From contig JBGTEH010000028.1 of assembly GCA_041747915.1 (NCBI GenBank), positions 1-36,752 of the forward strand: DNA of 36,752 nucleotides, in the 5' to 3' direction. The notes under the pieces were generated by a model, which was given only the letters and a program-made list of their open reading frames with translations, was not told where the DNA came from and searched no databases. Position 1 is the first letter of the stretch, and the number at the start of each line of letters is the position of its first letter. The position numbers and the translations under genes were made by a program. Positions 598-25,871 of this stretch are shown piece after piece. The DNA comes from Ilumatobacteraceae bacterium (GTDB lineage Bacteria; Actinomycetota; Acidimicrobiia; Acidimicrobiales; Ilumatobacteraceae).

Positions 598-1287
598 TCA
601 CGTTGCAGCCAGTGCCGAACGGGTGAGGGCGAGGAGGTCGGTCAGCGTCCGGCCCGGCTTGCCCAACACCGTCGGCGTTCCTGATCGGCGCAACCGATCG
701 GCGGTCTCGACGGCGAGCTCCATCGTCTCGGGGTTGGTCGACGAGAGCACGGCGACATCGATCTCGTGCTCGTCACAGAAGCGGAGGATTTCGTCCGCCG
801 GCATGTTTGCACCGAGGTGCTCGACGGCCCCGTTGTCGGCCCGCAGCACGACCGATGCCATCGAGGTCGGTAACGAGTGAAAGTCGCCGGCGACGGCTGC
901 CACCATCACCGTGCCCCGCCTGCGGCCCCGCGGGTTCGGTGCCAACTCCCCGAACAGCCGCTCGACGATCGTGGTGCCTTCGTCGACGAGGCCGAGCGAG
1001 ATCTGACGCACCAGCGCCTCGTCGCCGCTGACCAGCGCATCGTGAACTCGATCGGATGCACGCTCGATGCGTTTGGGTGTCGGCGACGTCGGAATGCGCG
1101 GCGTCGATCGTCGCGTGGCGAACTCGACGATGTCGCTGCGATCGATCACGTAGCGGCCATCGATGAACTGTGCAGGCAGCCTGCCGGTGCGCACCCATCG
1201 ATACGCAGTCTGGTAGTGGACCCCGAGCTCCGTCGCGGCCTCCCGCAGATCGACGTGCCGCAGATCGGCGTCCTGGTCTTCGCGCAC
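598..1287 (-). CDS. transcriptional regulator with an excisionase/MerR-superfamily HTH and a cobalamin(B12)-binding-like domain (CarH/LitR-like architecture)
   Basis: 229 aa with a GTG start. The N-terminus 'LREAATELGVHYQTAYRWVRTGRLPAQFIDGRYVIDRSDIVEF' is an excisionase-type HTH. The C-terminus 'VMVAAVAGDFHSLPTSMASVVLRADNGAVEHLGANMPADEILRFCDEHEIDVAVLSS...TVLGKPG' resembles the Rossmann-like B12-binding domain. It has a DxH loop (here DFHSLP instead of DxHxxG), an LGAN.P segment and an LSS segment. Confidence 0.6.
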   Translation of the reverse strand: MREDQDADLRHVDLREAATELGVHYQTAYRWVRTGRLPAQFIDGRYVIDRSDIVEFATRRSTPRIPTSPTPKRIERASDRVHDALVSGDEALVRQISLGLVDEGTTIVERLFGELAPNPRGRRRGTVMVAAVAGDFHSLPTSMASVVLRADNGAVEHLGANMPADEILRFCDEHEIDVAVLSSTNPETMELAVETADRLRRSGTPTVLGKPGRTLTDLLALTRSALAAT

Positions 1288-1319
1288 CGCCGCACCCTAC
1301 CGATTCAGATTTATTGTGG

Positions 1320-1359
1320 CTAAATGCTGCTAATTAGAACTAAATCCCGCTAACTTCGT
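1320..1359. promoter_or_regulatory. four tandem, exactly 10-bp-phased direct repeats (CTAAATGCTG / CTAATTAGAA / CTAAATCCCG / CTAACTTCGT) in the divergent rhodopsin/regulator promoter region
   Basis: Read directly from the sequence: CTAA starts at 1320, 1330, 1340 and 1350. This is the most AT-rich stretch of the region. It lies 33-72 bp from the regulator start (1287) and 43-82 bp from the rhodopsin ATG (1402). Confidence 0.6.
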
Positions 1360-1401
1360 CTCAGCGGTTGCAACGGTGCAACCCCAACCGAAGGAGCCCC
1401 G

Positions 1402-2220
1402 ATGGATCTCGTTCTGAGCGAAAACCAGTTCAACCTGGTGTACAACTCATTTTCGTTCGTCATTGCGTGCATGGGTGCGTCATTCCTCTTCTTCCTGCTC
1501 GTCAGGTCGAAGGTCGCACCCCGCCACCGCATGGCAGTCACGCTGTCCACGCTTGTCGTGGCAATTGCGCTGTATCACTACGCACGGATCTTCGATTCGT
1601 TCTCCAGCGCCTTCGATTTCGTCGACGGCGACTACATCCAGACGGGCGCACCCTTCAACGAGGGCTACCGCTACGTGGACTGGCTCCTGACGGTTCCGTT
1701 GCTGCTGGCGGAGCTGGTGGTGGTGCTCAAACTCAACAAGAGCACCACCCGCAGCCTGCTGGTTCGACTGACCACCGCTGCAATCGCCATGATCCTGCTC
1801 GGATGGCCTGGCGAGCTGGCTGAGCCTGGCTCCGACGCAAGGATGCTGTGGGGTATCGCCTCCACGATTCCGTTCCTCTACATCCTCTACGTGCTGTTCG
1901 TCGAGCTCGGCAAGTCGCTGGATCGTCAGAGCCCGCAGGTGCGCAAGCTCGTCGACGGGCTGCGGTACATCATCCTGGCGACCTGGGGTATCTACCCACT
2001 GGCGTACATCGCTCCGAGCGTGATCGACAACGAGGCGACCGCAGAGGTCGTGCGGCAGGTCGGCTACTCGATCGGCGACGTGCTGGCCAAGCCACTGTTC
2101 GGCCTGCTCGTGCTGTCGATCGCTCTCTCCAAGTCACGGGCCGACGGCTACGGACCCGCCATGGACGAGGACCCTGCGCTGCTCGTCCCCGACGACGCCA
2201 GCGCCCTCGCCAACACCTGA
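1402..2220 (+). CDS. microbial type-1 rhodopsin, proton-pump type (proteorhodopsin/xanthorhodopsin/actinorhodopsin-like clade)
   Basis: 272 aa with about 7 hydrophobic helices. Helix C 'RYVDWLLTVPLLLAE' gives D93/T97/E104 (DTE motif), with L101 at the spectral-tuning position. H59 sits in 'LYHYARI'. Helix G 'GDVLAKPLFG' gives D226 and the Schiff-base Lys K230 (codon 2089-2091). An AAGGAG RBS lies at 1391-1396. Confidence 0.9.
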   Translation: MDLVLSENQFNLVYNSFSFVIACMGASFLFFLLVRSKVAPRHRMAVTLSTLVVAIALYHYARIFDSFSSAFDFVDGDYIQTGAPFNEGYRYVDWLLTVPLLLAELVVVLKLNKSTTRSLLVRLTTAAIAMILLGWPGELAEPGSDARMLWGIASTIPFLYILYVLFVELGKSLDRQSPQVRKLVDGLRYIILATWGIYPLAYIAPSVIDNEATAEVVRQVGYSIGDVLAKPLFGLLVLSIALSKSRADGYGPAMDEDPALLVPDDASALANT

Positions 2221-2226
2221 TGCAAC

Positions 2227-2265
2227 CCCTCGGCCCGGCGCCCCTCCCCGGCGCCGGGCCGAGGG
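2227..2265 (+). terminator. GC-rich hairpin directly after the rhodopsin stop (probable intrinsic terminator)
   Basis: A perfect 16-bp stem pairs CCCTCGGCCCGGCGCC (2227-2242) with GGCGCCGGGCCGAGGG (2250-2265), with a 7-nt loop. It starts 7 nt after the TGA at 2218-2220. There is no clear U-tract, which is common in high-GC actinobacteria. Confidence 0.65.
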
Positions 2266-2346
2266 TCGGAAAGCACACCCGATGACCACGCACACTTCGG
2301 TGATCTCCTCGGATGTACCCGACGAACTACTGTTGAAGGAGGCGCC

Positions 2347-2667
2347 ATGAGCGCAATCGAGATCGATCCGATCGTCCCCCGAGGGATCGACTGGCAGGAA
2401 TACGCTGCGTGCAAGGGACACCTCGAACTCTTTTTCGGCAAAGTGGCGGAACGGCCTCAGGCGCGACTGCGACGCGAGGCCAAGGCACGAAAGTTCTGCG
2501 ACACCTGCGTCGTTCGCCAGCCATGTCGGCAGTTCGCCCGAGAGAACCACGACTACGGATTCTGGGGCGGCGAGAACGAGGAAGAACGTCATCTGGCGGG
2601 CTACGGGCTCTCCGCCCCGATCGGCGTCCGGGTCCGACTCGCACGCGAGGCCACCCCGGCCACCTGA
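2347..2667 (+). CDS. WhiB-family (Wbl) Fe-S transcriptional regulator
   Basis: 106 aa with four Cys in the Wbl pattern (AAC...FCDTCVVRQPC) followed by 'GFWGG'. A GAAGGAGG RBS lies just upstream of the ATG. Confidence 0.88.
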   Translation: MSAIEIDPIVPRGIDWQEYAACKGHLELFFGKVAERPQARLRREAKARKFCDTCVVRQPCRQFARENHDYGFWGGENEEERHLAGYGLSAPIGVRVRLAREATPAT

Positions 2668-3667: not shown

Positions 3668-3957
3668 GCACGACGAACCTGATGAGCGAAGCGCAACGCC
3701 AGCAGATCCTCTATCTCTGGGCGAGCGGATCGGCCCTCGATTCGCCGGTCGTCGGTTGGGCCTTCCATGACGGAACGAGCGGATCGGGACCCCCGCTCGC
3801 AGATGGCACGCCGCCCTACGCAAGCGGCGTCGCGGCGCTTCACGACGGTTGGATGCTGCTGCAGTCGTCGCAGCTGATTGCACCGTTACCCGACGCCGAG
3901 CACCGCAACGACTATCTCGAGTACGAGTTCGTCTTCGAACGCCGCGTCACGATGTGA
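3664..3957 (+). CDS. small hypothetical protein (about 92-97 aa)
   Basis: The frame is coding-like (GC3-rich). GTG at 3664 overlaps the PhyH stop (GTGA), and an alternative ATG lies at 3682 (MSEAQRQQILYLW...). I recognised no family. Confidence 0.4.
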   Translation: MSTTNLMSEAQRQQILYLWASGSALDSPVVGWAFHDGTSGSGPPLADGTPPYASGVAALHDGWMLLQSSQLIAPLPDAEHRNDYLEYEFVFERRVTM

Positions 3958-4492
3958 CGGGACCCGCCGAGCGCAGTCGGTCGACTTCCTCCATCGCCGT
4001 ACGCAGGCCGCTCAACCAGTCGTCGGTGTGTTGACCGACGAGACGGACGCACCACGCCAGTGCATCGGCGCGCGAGCGGGCCACATTGGCGGCAACGAGC
4101 GTGTCGAGCACGAGTCGCTCGGGCTGTCGAAGCCGGGTCATGACGGGGACTGCGAGGTGGGTGAAGAGTTCTGTGCGGTCGCCGACGGTGACGCCCCAGG
4201 CGACCTTTCGCTCGAAGCGGTGCTCGGCTTCGCGCGCCACATTCATCCGTTGGTCGCGAGTGTCCTCTCGGAAGCCCGAGATGCGCCCGATGACGGCCTC
4301 GGCGCGATCGGCATCGGTTGCGTCGGACGCGAGCTCGGGCACCGCAACAGTGAGGATGACCGTGATCTCCTCCCGATCGCTCGTGATCGTCGCCGGCGCG
4401 GTGGCCGTCCATTCGGCAGGGAGACGCCCAAGGAACCACGAGGTGATCGCGGACGGCTCGGCAGTGGACGTGGAAGTGGCTGTGGAGGTCAT
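3947..4492 (-). CDS. hypothetical protein (conserved-looking, family not recognised)
   Basis: 181-aa ORF with an ATG start and GC3-rich codons. It overlaps the preceding gene tail-to-tail by 11 nt. Confidence 0.6.
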   Translation of the reverse strand: MTSTATSTSTAEPSAITSWFLGRLPAEWTATAPATITSDREEITVILTVAVPELASDATDADRAEAVIGRISGFREDTRDQRMNVAREAEHRFERKVAWGVTVGDRTELFTHLAVPVMTRLRQPERLVLDTLVAANVARSRADALAWCVRLVGQHTDDWLSGLRTAMEEVDRLRSAGPVTS

Positions 4493-5290: not shown

Positions 5291-5905
5291 TCAGCCGATG
5301 GCGCGTTCTCCGCGTTGGGCGCTGTCGACGATCGATGCAATCCGGCTCTGCTTGGTTTCGTCGCGTGCGGCGCTGACGATCGACCACAGCATCGCCTTGC
5401 GAGCGCTCGGAGGAAATCCATCCCAGGCATCGCGCGCCGCCGGGTTCGCGTCGAGAGCTGTGCGCAGACCGTCGGGCTCGACGAGATCCTCGACGCTGTC
5501 GTAGATCGTCCACCAGCCGTTCGCTTGCGCGACCGCCACCGCTCGACGGCCGGCGTCGGTCATGAGCCCGGCCGCCTCCATGTCGGCCACGCGTCGGCGG
5601 TTGAGCCGCGTCCAGCTGCTCTTGGGCTTGCGTGGCGTGAGGAGTTGCAGCCCTCGCTCGTCGTCGAGGATCGAGGTGGTGGAATCGATCCATCCGTAGC
5701 AGAGCGCCTCCTCGACGACCTCCGGATACGGACATCTCGGCCGACCGGTGACGGAGCGCCACGAACACAGCCAGACTCCGGGCGAGGAACCGTGATGCTG
5801 TTCGAGCCAGGCGCGTACTGCACGTCGACTTTCGGCGTGATGGATCGCGAAGCCGAACTTCCAAGTTGTGGGGTGCGCCGACGCCGACGCGGGCACGTTT
5901 GGCAT
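5291..5905 (-). CDS. YdeI/OmpD-associated family protein
   Basis: 204 aa. 'FRAWLEQHH...GVWL...EEALCYGWIDS...RKPKSSWTRLNRRRV..MEAAGLMTDAG' resembles the YdeI (DUF1801-associated) family. Confidence 0.7.
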   Translation of the reverse strand: MPNVPASASAHPTTWKFGFAIHHAESRRAVRAWLEQHHGSSPGVWLCSWRSVTGRPRCPYPEVVEEALCYGWIDSTTSILDDERGLQLLTPRKPKSSWTRLNRRRVADMEAAGLMTDAGRRAVAVAQANGWWTIYDSVEDLVEPDGLRTALDANPAARDAWDGFPPSARKAMLWSIVSAARDETKQSRIASIVDSAQRGERAIG

Positions 5906-10248: not shown

Positions 10249-11613
10249 TCAGTCGTGGGCTTCGAGTCGCAGGGGCGTCTGCAGCTGCAGGGCGATCCGC
10301 CCGCGTCCCGTCCTGAGGAGTTGTATCGGCGCGCCGCGCTCCTCCAATCGGCGCTTCAGCATGATGATCCGGGTGTCGAGGTTGTCCCGGATGCCTGGCA
10401 ATTCGAGCGACTTGTCGAGGCGAATCTCCTTCGTGGTGAACTCGACCTGGCCAGCGTGGGCATTGCGCTGGACCAGTGACCACAGGATCCGGCCCGCCAC
10501 ACCCCGAATCAGGTACTCGCCGTCGAGGAAGACGCTGCCGTCCGACGCGAAGTGCCGGACATATGTGGCTGCGGGCGACGCGTCGGTTGTCGCGGGAGGT
10601 CGGACCGCGATTTCCGGACTCGATGGCGTCATCGGGAGGTCGTCGTCGGCGGGCCGGTCGAGGGCGACCGTCTCGGCGAGGATCGCCGCGATCACGCCGA
10701 CCAGCGTCTCGTCGCTGTCGTCGAACGCCACCGAAGCCGGGCTCTCGACGACCACTACGCCGCGCACTTCTCCACGCGACACTGCCGGAACAGCGAGGCG
10801 GCTTCGGGTATCTCTGCTCGTCGGCACTGGGATCTCGCGGTCGCTGTCGCTGAACCCCCTGCCGACGCTCAGCGCATATGCGCTGGTCGCGTGCACGCCG
10901 CCAAGCCGGACCGGGCGATTGCGTTCGGCTGCCACCCCGGCAGCACCGTCGCCGAACGGCATCTCCGACCCGACACCCTCGGCGGGAAATCCGTGGCTGG
11001 CGATCGTGTACAGCGCCTGACCCGTCTCGTCGACGAGCATGACCATCGATCGTTCGTAGCCGAGCAACTCGTCGAGTCCGCGCACTGCGACATCAACCAT
11101 TGTGTCGAAGTCACCGCATCGCGACAATCTCCTGGTCAGCTCGCCCATCGCGGACAGTCGATCAGCGAGCGGACGGCGTTCGAAGTGATGGCGCTCGTCC
11201 TGGAATGCGAAGTCGTTGATGACCTCGATGTGTTCGATGCGGTAGATGTCGGCCGAACGGAGCCGGAACACCCCGCTCGTTCCCGTCGACGTGGCGATCT
11301 CGTCAACCTCGCGCCTGAGGCGGTCGAACACCGGTCCTCGGCGCTCGGTTCGCTCGTAGACGATCGACAAGCGGTACTCGCTGCCCGACTGCGGCTCGGT
11401 CAACACGAGCGACGCCCGAGCGTTCTCGGAGAGGTTGACCGCCGTCTTGCCCATGAACTGGTTGGACAGCGCGATGCGCTCGGAATCGACGACGTTGACC
11501 GATGAGATGAACACCACGTTGGGCTCACCGGATGCACTCGCCGTCGCGATGATCGGCGGGATCCGGCCGTCGACACAACGCCGCAAGTCCTCGATCGTCA
11601 GCGGGGCGCTCAC
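10249..11613 (-). CDS. multidomain sensor-regulator: PNPOx-like split-barrel domain, GAF domain and C-terminal OmpR-like winged-helix segment
   Basis: 454 aa from GTG 11613 (VSAPLTIEDL). The N-terminus 'IPPIIATASASGEPNVVFISSV' is PNPOx-like. The middle is GAF-like ('DFDTMVDVAVRGLDELLGYERSMVMLVDE...LAVPAVSRGEVRGVVVVES'). The C-terminus 'FTTKEIRLD...NLDTRIIMLKRRLEE..IQLLRTGRGRIAL' resembles Trans_reg_C. Confidence 0.6.
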   Translation of the reverse strand: MSAPLTIEDLRRCVDGRIPPIIATASASGEPNVVFISSVNVVDSERIALSNQFMGKTAVNLSENARASLVLTEPQSGSEYRLSIVYERTERRGPVFDRLRREVDEIATSTGTSGVFRLRSADIYRIEHIEVINDFAFQDERHHFERRPLADRLSAMGELTRRLSRCGDFDTMVDVAVRGLDELLGYERSMVMLVDETGQALYTIASHGFPAEGVGSEMPFGDGAAGVAAERNRPVRLGGVHATSAYALSVGRGFSDSDREIPVPTSRDTRSRLAVPAVSRGEVRGVVVVESPASVAFDDSDETLVGVIAAILAETVALDRPADDDLPMTPSSPEIAVRPPATTDASPAATYVRHFASDGSVFLDGEYLIRGVAGRILWSLVQRNAHAGQVEFTTKEIRLDKSLELPGIRDNLDTRIIMLKRRLEERGAPIQLLRTGRGRIALQLQTPLRLEAHD

Positions 11614-12077
11614 CGAGCTCCGTCGCTGAGGGGGGCGCCGGCCATCGGCCCGGGCGTCTGATCGAAAATGCTGTCCACACGGACCGTACACGTGACGAAT
11701 GCGGAAGGGATACGACGCTCGAACAGGGCGGTCGGCAAATTATCGACCTGCGCGATCCGACTGATGAAGCGACGTGTCAACTCGACGGCGGTGTCGTGCT
11801 CGCCCGCCGTCGCCGGGCCGAGCGCCTCGACTCCACCCTTCAGTTGCACTGATTGGAACGTCACCACGTTGCCGGAGGTGATGGCGAGGCGACCTGACGC
11901 CCGGACGTGGCCGATGAGGTCCGCTTGTCCAGCGTCGAGGAACACGTGCACGATGTCGTCGCCTGTGGGCGACGCGCCGTACCCCTTCGACGCAAATGGA
12001 ATCCCGTCGGGAAGCACGGTGCCCACGATGATCGACACGCCACCCAGCAGGTGTTCCCGCAGCGCGGCGTCGAACAT
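11610..12077 (-). CDS. pyridoxamine 5'-phosphate oxidase (PNPOx)-like FMN/F420-binding split-barrel protein
   Basis: 155 aa with an ATG start. 'SIIVGTVLPDGIPFASKGYG...VHVFLD' is family-like. Its stop overlaps the downstream GTG (GTGA at 11610-11613). Confidence 0.7.
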   Translation of the reverse strand: MFDAALREHLLGGVSIIVGTVLPDGIPFASKGYGASPTGDDIVHVFLDAGQADLIGHVRASGRLAITSGNVVTFQSVQLKGGVEALGPATAGEHDTAVELTRRFISRIAQVDNLPTALFERRIPSAFVTCTVRVDSIFDQTPGPMAGAPLSDGAR

Positions 12078-18947: not shown

Positions 18948-21848
18948 TCACAGTGCCGATTGAGCGAATCGATCGAACGCGGCCGTCGCCTCCTGGGCGG
19001 CGGCCGCTTCGTCGAGTTCGGCGCCGCGGGCGAACTCCGCATCGAACACGTCGCGACCGGTTCGCTGTTCGAGTTCGGTGCGCATCGATTCGAGTCGAGC
19101 CACGTCGTCGCCGAACACGTCGTGGCCGGCACCGGGCGACACCACTGCGCCCAACAGTCGAACCGCTGCGATCGTCTCGTGGGCCTGCATCAGCAAGTTG
19201 ACCACGGAACGCATCCCGGTCCAGAACGGCGATTGCATCCCGGCACGCAACCACATCGGCAACAACCAGCGATAGTTCGCGATGGCCGATGTGAGGTCGC
19301 TCGAGCGCACATCCAGCGAGGCGAGCGAAGCGCCGGCGATGCCCTCGAGGAACGTCGACCCTCCCGCTCGCGCCAGTGCAACCGCCCGCTCCAAGTGCTG
19401 ACGGGCGAGATGAGCGTCAGCGTCGAGACGACACTCACCTGACGCATACTGGCACCACGAGTGAGCGATGGCAGCTCGCTCACCGTTCATGGCGGCCACC
19501 ATCGCGTCCGCGACGGCGACGACATCTCGACGATGCACGTAGGCCATGCAGATCACCAATGTGCCGTACGTCTCGGTGCGGCGGATGACGTCGTCGACGA
19601 CCCCTGGCAACCGCATGGCCTGTTCCAGCCGCTCGATCGCCCGGTCGAGCTCACCGTGGGCGAGATCTTCCGTGGTTTGGGCGCTGAGGAGCTCATAGGT
19701 CGGCATGAGGTTCCGACGCTCGCAGAACTGCTCCGCCAGCGACAGCAATCGACGCGTATCGTCGAGTGAGCTCTGCTTCCACGCTCCCAACCCGGCGATC
19801 GCGTAGGCATCGACGGTCAGAACGTGATCGACGTGTGCGCCCGCCGCCGCAGCGTCCTCGCACCATCTGACGAGTTCGATGCTCACACTGTTGAACGCGA
19901 GGTCGCGCAGCGACACCACCGTGCGAAGAACGGTGTCGGCGTCGTTGGCCGCGAGGCCGACTTCGATCGCGCGTCGGAAGTCGGCCATGCGGGCGATGTA
20001 CCCGTCGATCGGTGCCGAATCGCTGGCCGTGCGCAGGTCCGCCCGCAACGCCTCGGCCACGTCGCGCATCCGAAGCGAGAGGCGAGACAAGAAGCCGCGT
20101 CGTTCGATGTCATCGGTTTGCTCCACGGCGAATCGGCGGACGACGTGGAGCAGAGCGAGGCGCTCACCGTCACGCTGTGCCATCGAACGTTCAACGAGGA
20201 TCGACATCGTGTCGATCGCAGTCGAACGGTCGATCTCCATCACCGCAGCGACATCAGTTGCGGCGAACCGTGACGAAAACGTCGCCGCGGCCCGCAGCGC
20301 CCGTTTCGCTCGCTCGTCGAGGAGGTCGTATGACCAACTCAACGCGGCGTCGACCGAGCGATGGCGATCGACGGTCCGTCGACCACCGCGCAAGACCGCA
20401 ATACTCTCCTCGACGCCTTCGAGCACCTCGCGCGTGGTCAGTGCTTGCAAGCGTGCCGCCGCGAGTTCCAAGGCGAGGGGCAGGCCGTCCAGACGACCAG
20501 CGAGCTCATCGAGTTGCTCGAGTTCGTCGCCGTCAGGTGCCCGGCCGGTCACTGAAACCATCCGGTCGATCAAGAGACGGGTCGCCGGCGACGCAGTCCC
20601 GGCGGTGAGCGAAAGTGGTGGGACTGTGACCAGACGTTCGCCGTCGACGGCGAGCCGCTCTCGGCTGGTGGCGAGCACGACGACGTGGTCGGTCATCTCG
20701 ACGAGTCGCTCGGCGAGTGCCGCCGATTGATCGAGCACGTGCTCGCAGTTGTCGAGAACAACGAGGCAACGCTCGTGGCGCAATACCTCGACCAGGCGGT
20801 CGAGGTCTGGCTGATTGGTCCTGCTCTCCACCGCGGCCGCAGCGATCACGACATCGACCACCGTCAGATTCGTCGCCGTCGTCAGATCGCAGAACACGAC
20901 CTCTTCCAAGCCGGTGCCGTCGAGACGATGTGCGATTTCGGTTGCCAGGCGAGTCTTGCCGACGCCACCCGGCCCGATCAGGGTGATCAACCGGGAATCA
21001 GACAAACCGCGAACTGTTGTCGCAACCAGTTCCTCGCGACCCAAGAACGACGACGTCGGCTGCCGCAAGGCATTCCGAGATCGAGCAGACGGGGCACTCG
21101 GGGGCGGGTCGAGCGTGACGTCATCGGACCCGAGTAGTGCCGCGTGACGTTGTCGGAGTTCGGGCGACGGCGCAACACCGAGCTCGTCGGCGAGCAGACG
21201 CCGGTACGCGTCGTAGACGCGCAACGCGTCGGCGCGCCGGCCGAGCGACTCGTAGGAGCGAATGAGCAGGTGTCGTGGGTGCTCGCGCAAGGGCTGGCGC
21301 GACGCAAATGCCTCGATCTCGGCAATGACACCGGCCGCGTCGCCGTGATCCAGCTGCAACTCGAACCGCTCCTCGGTCGCACGGCAGCGGAGTTCCGTCA
21401 GACGGTCGATCTCGACTCGCCCATCGTCGGCGTCGACGAGATCCTCGTACGGATCACCGCGCCACAGCAGCGATGCCTCATCCAGCATCAGCGATGCTCG
21501 CTCAGGGTCCTCGAACCGCAACGCCGTCGCGTCCAGCACCAAACGCTCGAACTGCGCGACGTCAACGCGATCATCAGGCGCCCTCAAGATGTACCCGGGG
21601 GCCCGATACTCGAGATCGAGGTCGCTGATGCGCTGACGAAGTCGAAACACGAGGGATTGCAGTGCAGCCGGATCCGTCCAGGAGTCGTCGTCCCAGACGA
21701 ACTCCACGAGGCGATCCACGGAGACAACCTTTCCCCGATTGAGGAGCAGCGCGCTGAGCAGCCGACGCTGGCGCTGTCCGGTCAGAACGGTCTCCACGCC
21801 GTCGGCATTCGCCACGCGCAACGGGCCCAAGACACCGAACATGGTCAC
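18948..21848 (-). CDS. AfsR/SARP-family regulator: OmpR-type wHTH, BTAD, NB-ARC P-loop ATPase and TPR-like C-terminus
   Basis: The N-terminus is 'MFGVLGPLRV...RQRRLLSALLL'. The BTAD segment reads 'LWRGDPYEDL...ALRVYDAYRRLLADELGVAPSPEL', and the Walker A is 'LIGPGGVGKTRLA'. The start is either GTG 21848 or, perhaps more likely, ATG 21842. Confidence 0.85.
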   Translation of the reverse strand: MTMFGVLGPLRVANADGVETVLTGQRQRRLLSALLLNRGKVVSVDRLVEFVWDDDSWTDPAALQSLVFRLRQRISDLDLEYRAPGYILRAPDDRVDVAQFERLVLDATALRFEDPERASLMLDEASLLWRGDPYEDLVDADDGRVEIDRLTELRCRATEERFELQLDHGDAAGVIAEIEAFASRQPLREHPRHLLIRSYESLGRRADALRVYDAYRRLLADELGVAPSPELRQRHAALLGSDDVTLDPPPSAPSARSRNALRQPTSSFLGREELVATTVRGLSDSRLITLIGPGGVGKTRLATEIAHRLDGTGLEEVVFCDLTTATNLTVVDVVIAAAAVESRTNQPDLDRLVEVLRHERCLVVLDNCEHVLDQSAALAERLVEMTDHVVVLATSRERLAVDGERLVTVPPLSLTAGTASPATRLLIDRMVSVTGRAPDGDELEQLDELAGRLDGLPLALELAAARLQALTTREVLEGVEESIAVLRGGRRTVDRHRSVDAALSWSYDLLDERAKRALRAAATFSSRFAATDVAAVMEIDRSTAIDTMSILVERSMAQRDGERLALLHVVRRFAVEQTDDIERRGFLSRLSLRMRDVAEALRADLRTASDSAPIDGYIARMADFRRAIEVGLAANDADTVLRTVVSLRDLAFNSVSIELVRWCEDAAAAGAHVDHVLTVDAYAIAGLGAWKQSSLDDTRRLLSLAEQFCERRNLMPTYELLSAQTTEDLAHGELDRAIERLEQAMRLPGVVDDVIRRTETYGTLVICMAYVHRRDVVAVADAMVAAMNGERAAIAHSWCQYASGECRLDADAHLARQHLERAVALARAGGSTFLEGIAGASLASLDVRSSDLTSAIANYRWLLPMWLRAGMQSPFWTGMRSVVNLLMQAHETIAAVRLLGAVVSPGAGHDVFGDDVARLESMRTELEQRTGRDVFDAEFARGAELDEAAAAQEATAAFDRFAQSAL

Positions 21849-23527: not shown

Positions 23528-24871
23528 TCATGTCGGTCGGTCGGTGGCGAGGCGCACGCCAGACGAGTGCCATCGCGTGTGCGGATGGAAGAAGTTGCGG
23601 TACGTCGCTCGGGTGTGACCGGGCGGGGTCAACACGCAGCCGCCGCGCACTACCTGCTGGCCTGACATGAACTTGCCGTTGTATTCGCCGATTGCGCCGT
23701 CGGCGATCCGGTATCCCGGGTAGGGCTGATAGGCGGAGGAGGTCCATTCCCAGCAGTCGCCGAACAATTGTCGGAGCTGCCCGGTCGACGCGCCAGCTGA
23801 GCTCGGGTGAAAGGAGAATGTGTCGTCGCCGGTGAGCGCATCCACGCACAGGAAGTTGCCTGCGATGGGCAAGTTGCGCGCAGCGTGTTCCCACTCGTAT
23901 TCAGTCGGGAGCCGCGCCCCGGCCCAGGTGGCAAATGCGTCAGCCTCGTAGTGCGAGATGTGGACAACTGGCTCGAACGGATCGACCGGCCGGACACCAG
24001 TCAGGGTGTGCAGCAACCAGCGCTCCGGTTCATCGGGGTCTCGACGCCAGTACTCGGGCGCCGTCCATTGTTCGGCTTGTGCTCGGTACCACCCGTCGGA
24101 CTTCCACAGCTCGGGGCGCTGGTAGCCACCGTCGGCGATGAAGGCCTCCCACTCGATCGTCGTCACCAACCGGTCGGCCAACGCAAAGTCGTAGAGGCGC
24201 ACTTCGTGTCGCGGTGACTCGTTGTCCCAACTGAACCGGTCGGCAGTCGGGTCCACTCCGATCTCGACGCAACCGCCGTCGAACTCGATCCATCCCAGCG
24301 GCCCCGAGTCGTGCCCTACGGCGACCTGACGGTCGACGTAGGAAGGGCCAACCGCCGGATTCAGCGACAGTGCGTGCTTGATGTCCATGAGGAGCAACTC
24401 CTGGTGCTGCTCCTCATGATGGGTGCCGAGCAGAACGATCTCGATGACGCGTCGGGCCTCGGCCGGCTCGACGTCCGAGAGGTTCGTGAGCAGCCCGACA
24501 ACTTCGGCGTCCACCGATGATCGGTACTGGGCAACCTCAGCAATCGTCGGACGTGTGACCATCCCCCGGTGGGGTCGTGGATGTCGAGCGCCGACTGCGT
24601 CGTAGTAACTGTTGTACAGAAAGCGGTACTCGGGTCGATCCCACATGCGACCGCTGGTGCCGTCGACACCGAGGACGAACTCGGCGAAGAACCACGTCGT
24701 ATGTGCGCGATGCCATTTGGTCGGGCTGGTGTCCGGCATCGACTGGATCATCTGGTCTTCTGCCGACAACGGCGCAGCGAGGCGCTCAGTACGCGCGCGG
24801 ACGTCCTCGAATCGCTTGCGCAGCGCGCTGACCTGATCGACATCGACGCCTGAGCGAACGGTGTGGGGCAC
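23528..24871 (-). CDS. egtB: ergothioneine biosynthesis sulfoxide synthase EgtB (DinB_2 + FGE-sulfatase domains)
   Basis: The DinB-like domain reads 'SMPDTSPTKWHRAHTTWFFAEF', and the FGE-type C-terminus includes 'GDCWEWTSSAY...RGGC'. I chose GTG 24871, which has an AAGGA RBS. The track's extension to 25054 overlaps the VOC gene. Confidence 0.85.
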   Translation of the reverse strand: MPHTVRSGVDVDQVSALRKRFEDVRARTERLAAPLSAEDQMIQSMPDTSPTKWHRAHTTWFFAEFVLGVDGTSGRMWDRPEYRFLYNSYYDAVGARHPRPHRGMVTRPTIAEVAQYRSSVDAEVVGLLTNLSDVEPAEARRVIEIVLLGTHHEEQHQELLLMDIKHALSLNPAVGPSYVDRQVAVGHDSGPLGWIEFDGGCVEIGVDPTADRFSWDNESPRHEVRLYDFALADRLVTTIEWEAFIADGGYQRPELWKSDGWYRAQAEQWTAPEYWRRDPDEPERWLLHTLTGVRPVDPFEPVVHISHYEADAFATWAGARLPTEYEWEHAARNLPIAGNFLCVDALTGDDTFSFHPSSAGASTGQLRQLFGDCWEWTSSAYQPYPGYRIADGAIGEYNGKFMSGQQVVRGGCVLTPPGHTRATYRNFFHPHTRWHSSGVRLATDRPT

Positions 24872-24986
24872 GGGAGTCCTTGTGGTGTGAGCAGTGGCAG
24901 GGGCGTTTGCACGAAACGCCAGCGACACATACAGACAACCGACGGTCTGAATCGTTACAGGGGTCGATTCTGACCATCGGCCGCGG

Positions 24987-25871
24987 TCACCGCGGTTCGG
25001 AGATTCGCACAACGTGGCCGTCGGGATCGCGTGCGACCAGATCGATCCCACCACCGAGCGATACGTCGACGTCGCTCATCGATGAGAGGAGCCGATCCCG
25101 AATGCCGTCGAGGTCGTTGGTGGTGCATCTCGTCTCGACGTACCAGAGGTCGCCGGGTGCGGTGTTAGCCGGTGGCGACTTCCCAGTTCGCGGCGACAGG
25201 TATTCCAGGAACTCGACCCCGGGCCCCGCCGATCCGCGGAGCCCCGTGATCCGGACTCGTGCGCCTTCGACCCCGCTCAGTGACTCCTGCTCGGTTCCCC
25301 AGTTCTCGCTCTCCCCGGCGACAGAAAGGCCGAGCTCGTCGCGGTAGAACCGCAGGCTCGCGACGGTCGAAGACACGGCGATCGCGGTGTGGTCGATCCC
25401 CAGGACGACTGCCTCGGTGGACTGCCAACGTGCATCACCCTTACCCGGTGGGAAGCTGATCAACTCGAGGGGGTGGCGATCCGGCCCGAGAAAGTAGAAG
25501 GCCTGAATTCCGCCCGCTGCGGGATTCCAATCGGGAAGGCGTTGCGGTGCAGAGCTGATGGCTTCGACTCCGGCGGCACGGAGCCGTCCGCACGCCGCAT
25601 CCATGTCGCTCACCACCAGAGCCACGTGCTGGAACCACAGGTCATTGCTGTGGCTGTCAAGTGGGGCTGGTCGGCCAGGCGGGCGCGACTCGACGAGGGT
25701 GAGGGATTCTCGCCCGAGCCGAACTGTGACGGTTCGCCCGTCCGAGGTGGATTGGTCATTCGCAACGAGCGTGCCGTCGAGGACCTCGATGAAGAACTCG
25801 GCCGCAGCGACGGCGCTACTCACGGAGAACGCGACCGTATCGACCGTGAGGGTCGGGTCCGAAGGACTCAC
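24987..25871 (-). CDS. two-domain VOC (glyoxalase/bleomycin-resistance/extradiol dioxygenase) family protein
   Basis: 294 aa with two repeated VOC modules ('FQHVALVVSDMDAA...', 'IDHTAIAVSSTVASLRFYRDELG'). The start is GTG. Confidence 0.75.
   Translation of the reverse strand: MSPSDPTLTVDTVAFSVSSAVAAAEFFIEVLDGTLVANDQSTSDGRTVTVRLGRESLTLVESRPPGRPAPLDSHSNDLWFQHVALVVSDMDAACGRLRAAGVEAISSAPQRLPDWNPAAGGIQAFYFLGPDRHPLELISFPPGKGDARWQSTEAVVLGIDHTAIAVSSTVASLRFYRDELGLSVAGESENWGTEQESLSGVEGARVRITGLRGSAGPGVEFLEYLSPRTGKSPPANTAPGDLWYVETRCTTNDLDGIRDRLLSSMSDVDVSLGGGIDLVARDPDGHVVRISEPR

Follow-up and report, generated by a model that had tools for sequence, protein, structure and literature searches.

Cobalamin-dependent photoreceptors of the CarH/LitR type, such as Thermus thermophilus CarH (TtCarH), Myxococcus CarH and Streptomyces LitR, are built of an N-terminal winged helix-turn-helix (HTH) domain, a four-helix bundle with a W-H-x8-E-H motif and a Rossmann domain carrying the histidine that serves as lower ligand of the cofactor. 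In the TtCarH structures the cap over the adenosyl group also forms the interface of a head-to-tail dimer. Loaded with adenosylcobalamin, CarH sits in the dark as a tetramer on direct repeats, from which it is released when light causes its disassembly (PMC4557120, PMC10442372). Here we analyse 36,752 nt of an Ilumatobacteraceae bacterium, contig JBGTEH010000028.1 of assembly GCA_041747915.1 (hereafter the window), in which a gene for a CarH-like regulator lies divergently beside the gene of a xanthorhodopsin-clade proton pump, followed by a WhiB-family gene. To our knowledge, the control of rhodopsin expression by light is largely unknown in bacteria. We propose, with a probability of about 0.62, that this lineage carries a CarH-type switch of rhodopsin, the sensor of which is probably disabled in the present genome, where rhodopsin is most likely expressed constitutively.

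Some parts of this proposal have precedents. Cobalamin-binding proteins have been listed among the neighbours of heliorhodopsins and of pumps with the Asp-Thr-Glu (DTE) motif (bioRxiv 10.1101/2021.02.16.431466), and HTH-fused light-responsive B12 domains in general were already noted by database mining (PMC11796333). A precedent for light-blind derivatives is CarA, the B12-independent CarH paralogue of Myxococcus, which is CarH-like and has lost the requirement for B12 and light (PMC9304148, PMC8156234). In the literature we found no description of a characterised xanthorhodopsin-clade pump regulated by a B12 photoreceptor, and no paper characterising a B12 regulator of a rhodopsin. An earlier note on the same DNA had suggested a module with a B12 light input and a rhodopsin output; for the lineage, conserved motifs, synteny and a repeat array support such a module, but the sensor of the window copy has suffered a deletion. 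The three open reading frames on which that note was based were recovered at the same positions and its observation was confirmed in full, including a gap of exactly 114 bp (1288-1401) between the divergent regulator and rhodopsin genes.

The regulator family and its likeness to CarH

The window regulator (598..1287, minus strand; 229 residues) was examined with Pfam, in alignments of 10 and 65 homologues and in an AlphaFold2 (AF2) model. Residues 14-60 match HTH_17 with 47.8 bits (Pfam cut-off 27) and residues 126-212 match the B12-binding domain PF02310 with 37.4 bits (cut-off 32.1). The protein had been described as an excisionase/MerR-type HTH fused to a cobalamin-binding-like Rossmann domain, and both the fusion and the excisionase type hold, with a match to MerR that stays below the Pfam cut-off, as discussed below. 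For the DNA-binding domain the nearest solved sequence is the DNA-binding domain of RacA (E = 0.013). Pfam gave no match of the window regulator to PF02607, the four-helix bundle, and NCBIfam returned MetH, corrinoid-protein and CarH matches only, all of them sub-threshold. The features of a B12 Rossmann domain with a lower axial histidine are retained as G134-D-F-H137 (GxxH) and G159-A-N-M-P163 (GxxxP). The deviation of the histidine loop from DxHxxG had raised doubts about cofactor binding; the loop does read GDFHSLP, but this is no defect, because DFHSLP satisfies GxxH and is the norm of the family.

A protein search with the regulator gave more than 1100 relatives, among them entries with source names such as 'Ilumatobacteraceae' and 'light-induced transcriptional regulator'. 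Among the matches listed, the 119 other clusters have 255-280 residues, and each contains PF12728 (HTH_17), PF02607 (B12-binding_2) and PF02310, which is the CarH order of DNA-binding domain, four-helix bundle and B12 Rossmann domain. In the alignments the bundle of intact members reads ...IGAEW-H-AGRLEIWV-EH..., that is, the Wx9EH motif of CarH including the histidine that adjoins the tryptophan, and their Rossmann domain carries GD(F/L)HSLP and HLGANMP. The elements GxxW, EH, GxxH and GxxxP are the signature of light-responsive cobalamin domains (PMC11796333), and intact members have them. Moreover, GxxW-x9-EH and the loop histidine are kept in 80/80 homologues from species-level genomes, which belong mostly to Ilumatobacteraceae and further Acidimicrobiia and include three Nocardioides and one member of the Propionibacteriales.

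The nearest intact relative of the window regulator is a homologue of 264 residues from GCA_041743045.1 (contig JBGTNN010000518.1), whose AF2 model has a predicted local distance difference test (pLDDT) of 93 and a predicted template modelling score (pTM) of 0.75. The best Foldseek matches of this model were the photocobilins SasPcob (8J2W, 8J2X) and AbPcob (8J2Y), the B12 domain of CtMerR (8JBS) and TtCarH (5C8D/5C8E). The alignment with full-length TtCarH covers the whole chain in 266-294 columns and therefore must include the DNA-binding domain. Judged by sequence and predicted fold, the intact family members agree with CarH/LitR proteins. The closest solved B12 domains are those of the photocobilins (PMC10979010) and CtMerR (PMC11796333), both by sequence (4.5e-22) and by fold (root-mean-square deviation of 1.9-4 Angstrom over about 200 columns in Foldseek). 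They share GxxW, EH, GxxH and GxxxP with the family, and the source of 8J2Y is an Acidimicrobiaceae bacterium. However, photocobilins carry a C-terminal bilin-binding globin domain, control enzymes and have no DNA-binding domain, whereas the proteins described here have an N-terminal HTH and nothing beyond the Rossmann domain.

The likeness to the CarH/LitR systems extends from the order of the protein parts in intact relatives to the locus, since in both cases the regulator adjoins a light-related target and a putative operator of short tandem direct repeats lies over the promoter. There are also clear differences. The DNA-binding domain scores as HTH_17, the excisionase type, and not as MerR; the repeats have a 10-bp period, three to six copies and the core TTAG(C/T), while the TtCarH operator consists of three 11-bp repeats; and the target is a rhodopsin, plus WhiB, instead of carotenoid genes. 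The window copy differs further in having no Wx9EH.

A deletion in the four-helix bundle of the window copy

The Trp-containing bundle motif of CarH had been reported as not obvious in the window protein. Indeed, it is absent, and in fact it has been deleted. In both homologue alignments the window regulator is the sole short member, with one clean gap of 35 residues after EGTT and before IVERL. Alignment of the DNA with two contigs of the nearest relative (L001 and L002), which is 94% identical to the window overall, showed that exactly 105 bp are missing, in frame. In these contigs two copies of the 8-bp direct repeat CGATCGTC (gene sense) flank the segment that was lost, and the window has a single copy at the deletion junction (964-971, minus strand), where the junction codons T106 and I107 occupy 967-972. 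An in-frame gap at a repeat of which the window keeps one copy is the trace that a deletion by microhomology or slippage leaves behind.

The lost residues correspond to 107-141 of the nearest relative, and on the model of the latter they comprise the whole of bundle helix 3, the loop and the N-terminal half of helix 4; GxxW, the adjoining histidine and EH were lost with them. The window protein retains the HTH_17 domain, helices 1 and 2 of the bundle (residues 71-102), eight residues of helix 4 and the Rossmann domain. In its AF2 model (m65bda68cf208) the HTH and Rossmann domains are confident, pLDDT is 51-67 around residues 101-120, and pTM is 0.52 as compared with 0.75 for the intact relative. 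Because Wx9EH, one of the defining features, is lacking, we do not class the window protein as a functional CarH on its sequence, and since helix 3 and half of helix 4 are gone, the light-input half of the module is probably non-functional in this genome. Near the GxxH and GxxxP elements, moreover, Gly153 replaces a tryptophan that is invariant in the 65 aligned intact relatives (RADN-W-xVEHLG).

Among all sequences examined, the deletion occurs in the window copy only, and scans of Joint Genome Institute (JGI) metagenome contigs for the exact junction and for a degenerate 'EGTTIVERLFG' did not find it. We also considered relaxed selection on the truncated regulator gene and found no support for it: in comparison with the nearest relative, the ratio of nonsynonymous to synonymous substitution rates (dN/dS) of the regulator is 0.27, near that of WhiB (0.19), with values of 0.07 for the rhodopsin and 0.10 for the acyl-CoA dehydrogenase. 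At conserved columns, three lineage-specific changes were counted in the window regulator and two in its relative. The window offers a natural sensor-deletion allele beside an intact, strongly conserved rhodopsin, and a ready comparison with a 94%-identical intact relative.

Gene pairing, the repeat array and the proposed switch

That the gene pair is syntenic in relatives was confirmed. Of the 80 species-level genomes, 78 have enough upstream sequence, and 45 of these carry a divergent rhodopsin gene beside the regulator, about 110-170 bp from it, the encoded rhodopsin being 54-83% identical to that of the window. In three further genomes a rhodopsin gene is close by in another arrangement. 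The divergent pairing reaches Nocardioides and the Propionibacteriales genome. The nearest relative has the same gene order as the window, namely acyl-CoA dehydrogenase and regulator, then divergently rhodopsin, WhiB and PhyH, and relatives with a regulator sharing 60% identity with that of the window have this order too. Where rhodopsin is absent the divergent neighbour is often a WhiB gene, and in distant members of the family it encodes a photolyase-related protein, a BLUF-adenylate cyclase, an NmrA/DUF2867 protein or a HEAT-glycosyltransferase. The family is thus found consistently in the neighbourhood of light-using or light-responsive genes.

Between the two genes of the window lie four tandem 10-bp direct repeats (1319..1353, minus strand), identified with shuffle controls and homologous intergenic regions. 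Their core is TTAG(C/T) in the sense of the regulator gene; on the plus strand they read GCTAA at 1319, GCTAA at 1329, ACTAA at 1339 and GCTAA at 1349. Within the 36.7-kb window the three-repeat pattern is found here only, with 0 expected from 100 shuffles. The 47 distinct homologous intergenic regions contain 67 TTAG pairs with a spacing of exactly 10 bp, where shuffles give 0.1, and 39 pairs with a spacing of 20 bp. Upstream of the regulator, an array of at least three in-register repeats is present in 64% of the loci paired with rhodopsin and in 45% of the remaining ones, as opposed to 0.1% of background windows. The last repeat overlaps TAACTT (1351..1356, plus strand), a conserved TAAnnT box, and GCTAA(C/A/T)nT is conserved at the same -10-like position of the aligned rhodopsin leaders, so the box is presumably the rhodopsin -10. 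The array, lying over the rhodopsin promoter region and adjoining the regulator gene, looks like an operator, and both its period and its placement are conserved between loci.

On the other side, a -10-like hexamer TAGGGT (1294..1299, minus strand), located by inspection, lies 6 nt ahead of the GTG start of the regulator (1285-1287, minus strand). This short distance suggests that the regulator transcript is leaderless, and a TAnnnT-N6-7-start arrangement recurs in most homologous regulator loci. A scan of 500-2900 with the sigma-70 consensus found no promoter, and the promoter assignments given here are based on the conserved TAnnnT boxes only.

The array stays with the regulator when rhodopsin is absent, including loci with WhiB as neighbour. 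In one locus (L070) the rhodopsin gene lies about 1 kb downstream of the regulator and is not divergent from it; in front of it, at 5651-5735, stand a second four-repeat TTAG-type array and then a leader hairpin and a Shine-Dalgarno sequence, which is the same downstream layout as in the window. A stray four-repeat array was seen in locus L078 (6000-6033) beside an open reading frame for a small membrane protein. Substitutions between the window and L001 cluster in the regulator-side half of the intergenic region (1288-1345), with about 13 in 50 columns, and none is found in the 74 bases that adjoin the rhodopsin start. Apart from one TTAG-to-TCAG change this pair has retained its TTAG cores, and the spacers vary.

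By analogy with CarH, an intact regulator would bind adenosylcobalamin in the dark, with the four-helix bundle capping the upper face of the cofactor and the histidine of the GxxH loop acting as lower ligand. The loaded protein would then oligomerise and occupy the TTAG(C/T) array, which overlaps the putative rhodopsin -10 box and adjoins the regulator's own presumably leaderless promoter, and intact members would thus repress both rhodopsin and themselves. Light would break the Co-C bond, the oligomer would fall apart and rhodopsin would be transcribed. WhiB is probably transcribed as well, through read-through or, in certain relatives, directly. Should repression require B12, the expression of rhodopsin would depend on cobalamin availability too. 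Such a compact candidate circuit, in which a CarH-type photoreceptor with an excisionase-type HTH and a 10-bp TTAG operator would govern a xanthorhodopsin pump and a WhiB protein, is conserved in dozens of species-level genomes of Ilumatobacteraceae, other Acidimicrobiia and Nocardioides, and its parts could supply a new green-light-responsive repressor/operator pair for actinobacteria.

In the window protein the DNA-binding and Rossmann domains are intact, but the cap for the adenosyl group and the part corresponding to the head-to-tail dimer interface are gone. Therefore the repressing oligomer is most likely not formed, and a protein that cannot assemble the dark-state repressor would leave rhodopsin expressed regardless of light. 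Some points weigh against this interpretation. The match of the regulator to MerR (PF00376) reaches only 14.1 bits, under the Pfam cut-off of 28.2, and B12 binding, DNA binding and a light response are predicted for the HTH_17-type subfamily from its likeness to CarH. The deletion allele is known from one contig only and could represent a minority variant or, with lower probability, an artefact. The rest of the regulator gene is, by its sequence, without clear decay, and neither HTH nor operator is damaged, so that the allele may still have a role or may have arisen very recently. Finally, that the outcome is constitutive expression and not constitutive silence is something we infer.

The last point leads to the alternative that the deletion allele behaves as a CarA-like light-blind repressor, which would bind the array and keep rhodopsin off or low whatever the light, since CarA represses without B12. 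The HTH residues of the window copy do match the family invariants, all four operator repeats are intact, and the dN/dS of 0.27 indicates purifying selection on the rest of the gene. However, CarA keeps a complete bundle and lost the function through substitutions, whereas here a single deletion removes 1.5 helices, and no CarS-like antirepressor is evident in the window. The bundle of CarH was reportedly identified by Jost et al. 2015 as the dimer interface needed for cooperative DNA binding, and a rhodopsin with a dN/dS of 0.07 is hard to square with permanent repression; because the rhodopsin is under such strong purifying selection, derepression fits better than permanent silencing. We therefore consider a CarA-like repressor unlikely.

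It is also quite improbable, in our opinion, that the deletion arose as an artefact of assembly or consensus calling or reflects a rare variant of the population, the genome really carrying an intact photoreceptor. The allele is represented by a single contig and a single protein cluster, scans of the JGI metagenome contigs did not reveal its junction, and the nearest relative, in spite of 94% DNA identity, is intact. Nevertheless, an exact in-frame gap of 105 bp with 8-bp microhomology is the signature of slippage or microhomology-mediated deletion, 8 bp are far below the k-mer sizes of assemblers, and the same gene contains a second unusual change, the replacement of the invariant Trp by Gly. 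That the signal sensed by the family is cobalamin supply instead of light, or that its members bind B12 but have no link to light and adjoin rhodopsin for another reason, is very unlikely: many B12-binding domains are not photoreceptors, the best NCBIfam matches are MetH and corrinoid proteins and the light role of the HTH_17-type subfamily is deduced from sequence, but the light-response signature (PMC11796333) of GxxW-x9-EH and loop histidine is kept in 80/80 homologues, the closest solved structures are proven photoreceptors and the neighbours, rhodopsin, photolyase-related protein and BLUF-cyclase, are light-related.

A more far-reaching scenario combines several of these elements and, taken as a whole, is doubtful. 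The allele would be no dead gene: a single natural step would have turned a B12 photoreceptor into a light-blind regulator still able to bind the TTAG array, for instance through a Rossmann-mediated dimer with or without cobalamin, and rhodopsin and WhiB of this organism would follow a cue other than light. At the same time, the family would represent the first light switch of rhodopsin phototrophy among actinobacteria that are widespread in water and soil; WhiB would add a second tier of regulation, and repression would be gated by B12 supply.

Rhodopsin, WhiB and other features of the window

The rhodopsin gene (1402..2220, plus strand; 272 residues) is apparently intact, according to Pfam (Bac_rhodopsin, 136.5 bits), PDB matches, key residues and dN/dS, and its product is 99% identical to that of the nearest relative. 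The hallmarks of an outward proton pump claimed for it were verified residue by residue: H59, D93, T97, L101, E104, D226 and K230. By sequence the best PDB matches are psXR (9WFA; 2.2e-81), Kin4B8 (7YTB; 5.9e-75) and Gloeobacter rhodopsin (6NWD; 6.1e-75), within a range of 2e-81 to 3e-69 for the xanthorhodopsin clade. These pumps and xanthorhodopsin itself (3DDL) share with the window protein the DTE motif, the counter-ion partner His59, the retinal lysine Lys230 and Leu101 at the tuning position, and the 'acidirhodopsins' of Acidimicrobiales (PMC4337565) fall into the same comparison. We thus assign the protein to the DTE proton pumps of the xanthorhodopsin clade, in comparison with which it has nothing unusual. 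Gly151 (in LWGIAST, residues 149-155; window 1846-1866) occupies the position of bacteriorhodopsin Trp138, and glycine is also found there in xanthorhodopsin and Kin4B8, which bind a carotenoid antenna. The pump may bind an antenna carotenoid as well, though the window has no carotenoid genes in the open reading frames scanned; as noted earlier, genes for carotenoid or retinal synthesis are missing, none having been found by a domain scan of the 20 other large open reading frames of the window.

The rhodopsin leader contains a hairpin with a 7-bp stem and a 4-nt loop, GGTTGCA-ACGG-TGCAACC (1366..1383, plus strand), which was found by per-sequence hairpin detection between the -10-like box and the Shine-Dalgarno sequence AAGGAG (1391-1396, plus strand), the latter beginning 7 nt beyond the hairpin end. 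Stems of at least 6 bp occur at the corresponding site in 29 of the 47 homologous leaders, against a mean of 6.4 and a maximum of 13 in shuffles. Taken alone, the fold of the window hairpin is unexceptional (z = 0), and it has no Rfam match. The stems vary between lineages, and the loop is often nCGn. When the rhodopsin leaders were aligned with MAFFT, RNAalifold gave no more than a 4-bp core, since stems of unequal length are misplaced in that alignment. The hairpin could serve to stabilise the 5' end, act as a regulatory RNA element or represent a palindromic site for a protein.

Downstream of rhodopsin a GC-rich hairpin of 16 bp (2227..2265, plus strand) is terminator-like. It had been called a strong terminator, and its stability agrees with this (-44.4 kcal/mol, z = -5.9; 0/200 shuffles fold as well), but there is no U-tract. 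The gene that follows (2347..2667, plus strand) does encode a WhiB-type Fe-S regulator, as had been stated: Pfam gives Whib with 50.1 bits, and the translation shows Cys22, Cys51, Cys54 and Cys60 together with the GFWGG turn. WhiB is a conserved downstream partner of rhodopsin, with the gene present in 41/88 related loci. In nine loci without rhodopsin (L011, L014, L016, L023, L038, L048, L064, L072 and L082) the WhiB gene, which is divergent from the regulator, immediately follows the TTAG array, at about 3700-4000 in each. Since the array directly fronts WhiB where rhodopsin is absent, WhiB appears to be part of the same light regulon, and the rhodopsin gene looks like a unit that can be inserted or lost between operator and WhiB.

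Rfam and tRNA scans of the window gave no match. Other notable genes on the minus strand encode a DinB_2 + FGE-sulfatase protein (EgtB-like, of the ergothioneine type; 23528-25054), a 966-residue SARP/BTAD + NB-ARC regulator (18948-21848) and a PNPOx + GAF protein (10249-11691). The window also encodes two SMP-30/gluconolactonase-like proteins, a DUF2855 protein, a hemerythrin, F420-linked enzymes and a glycogen debranching enzyme.

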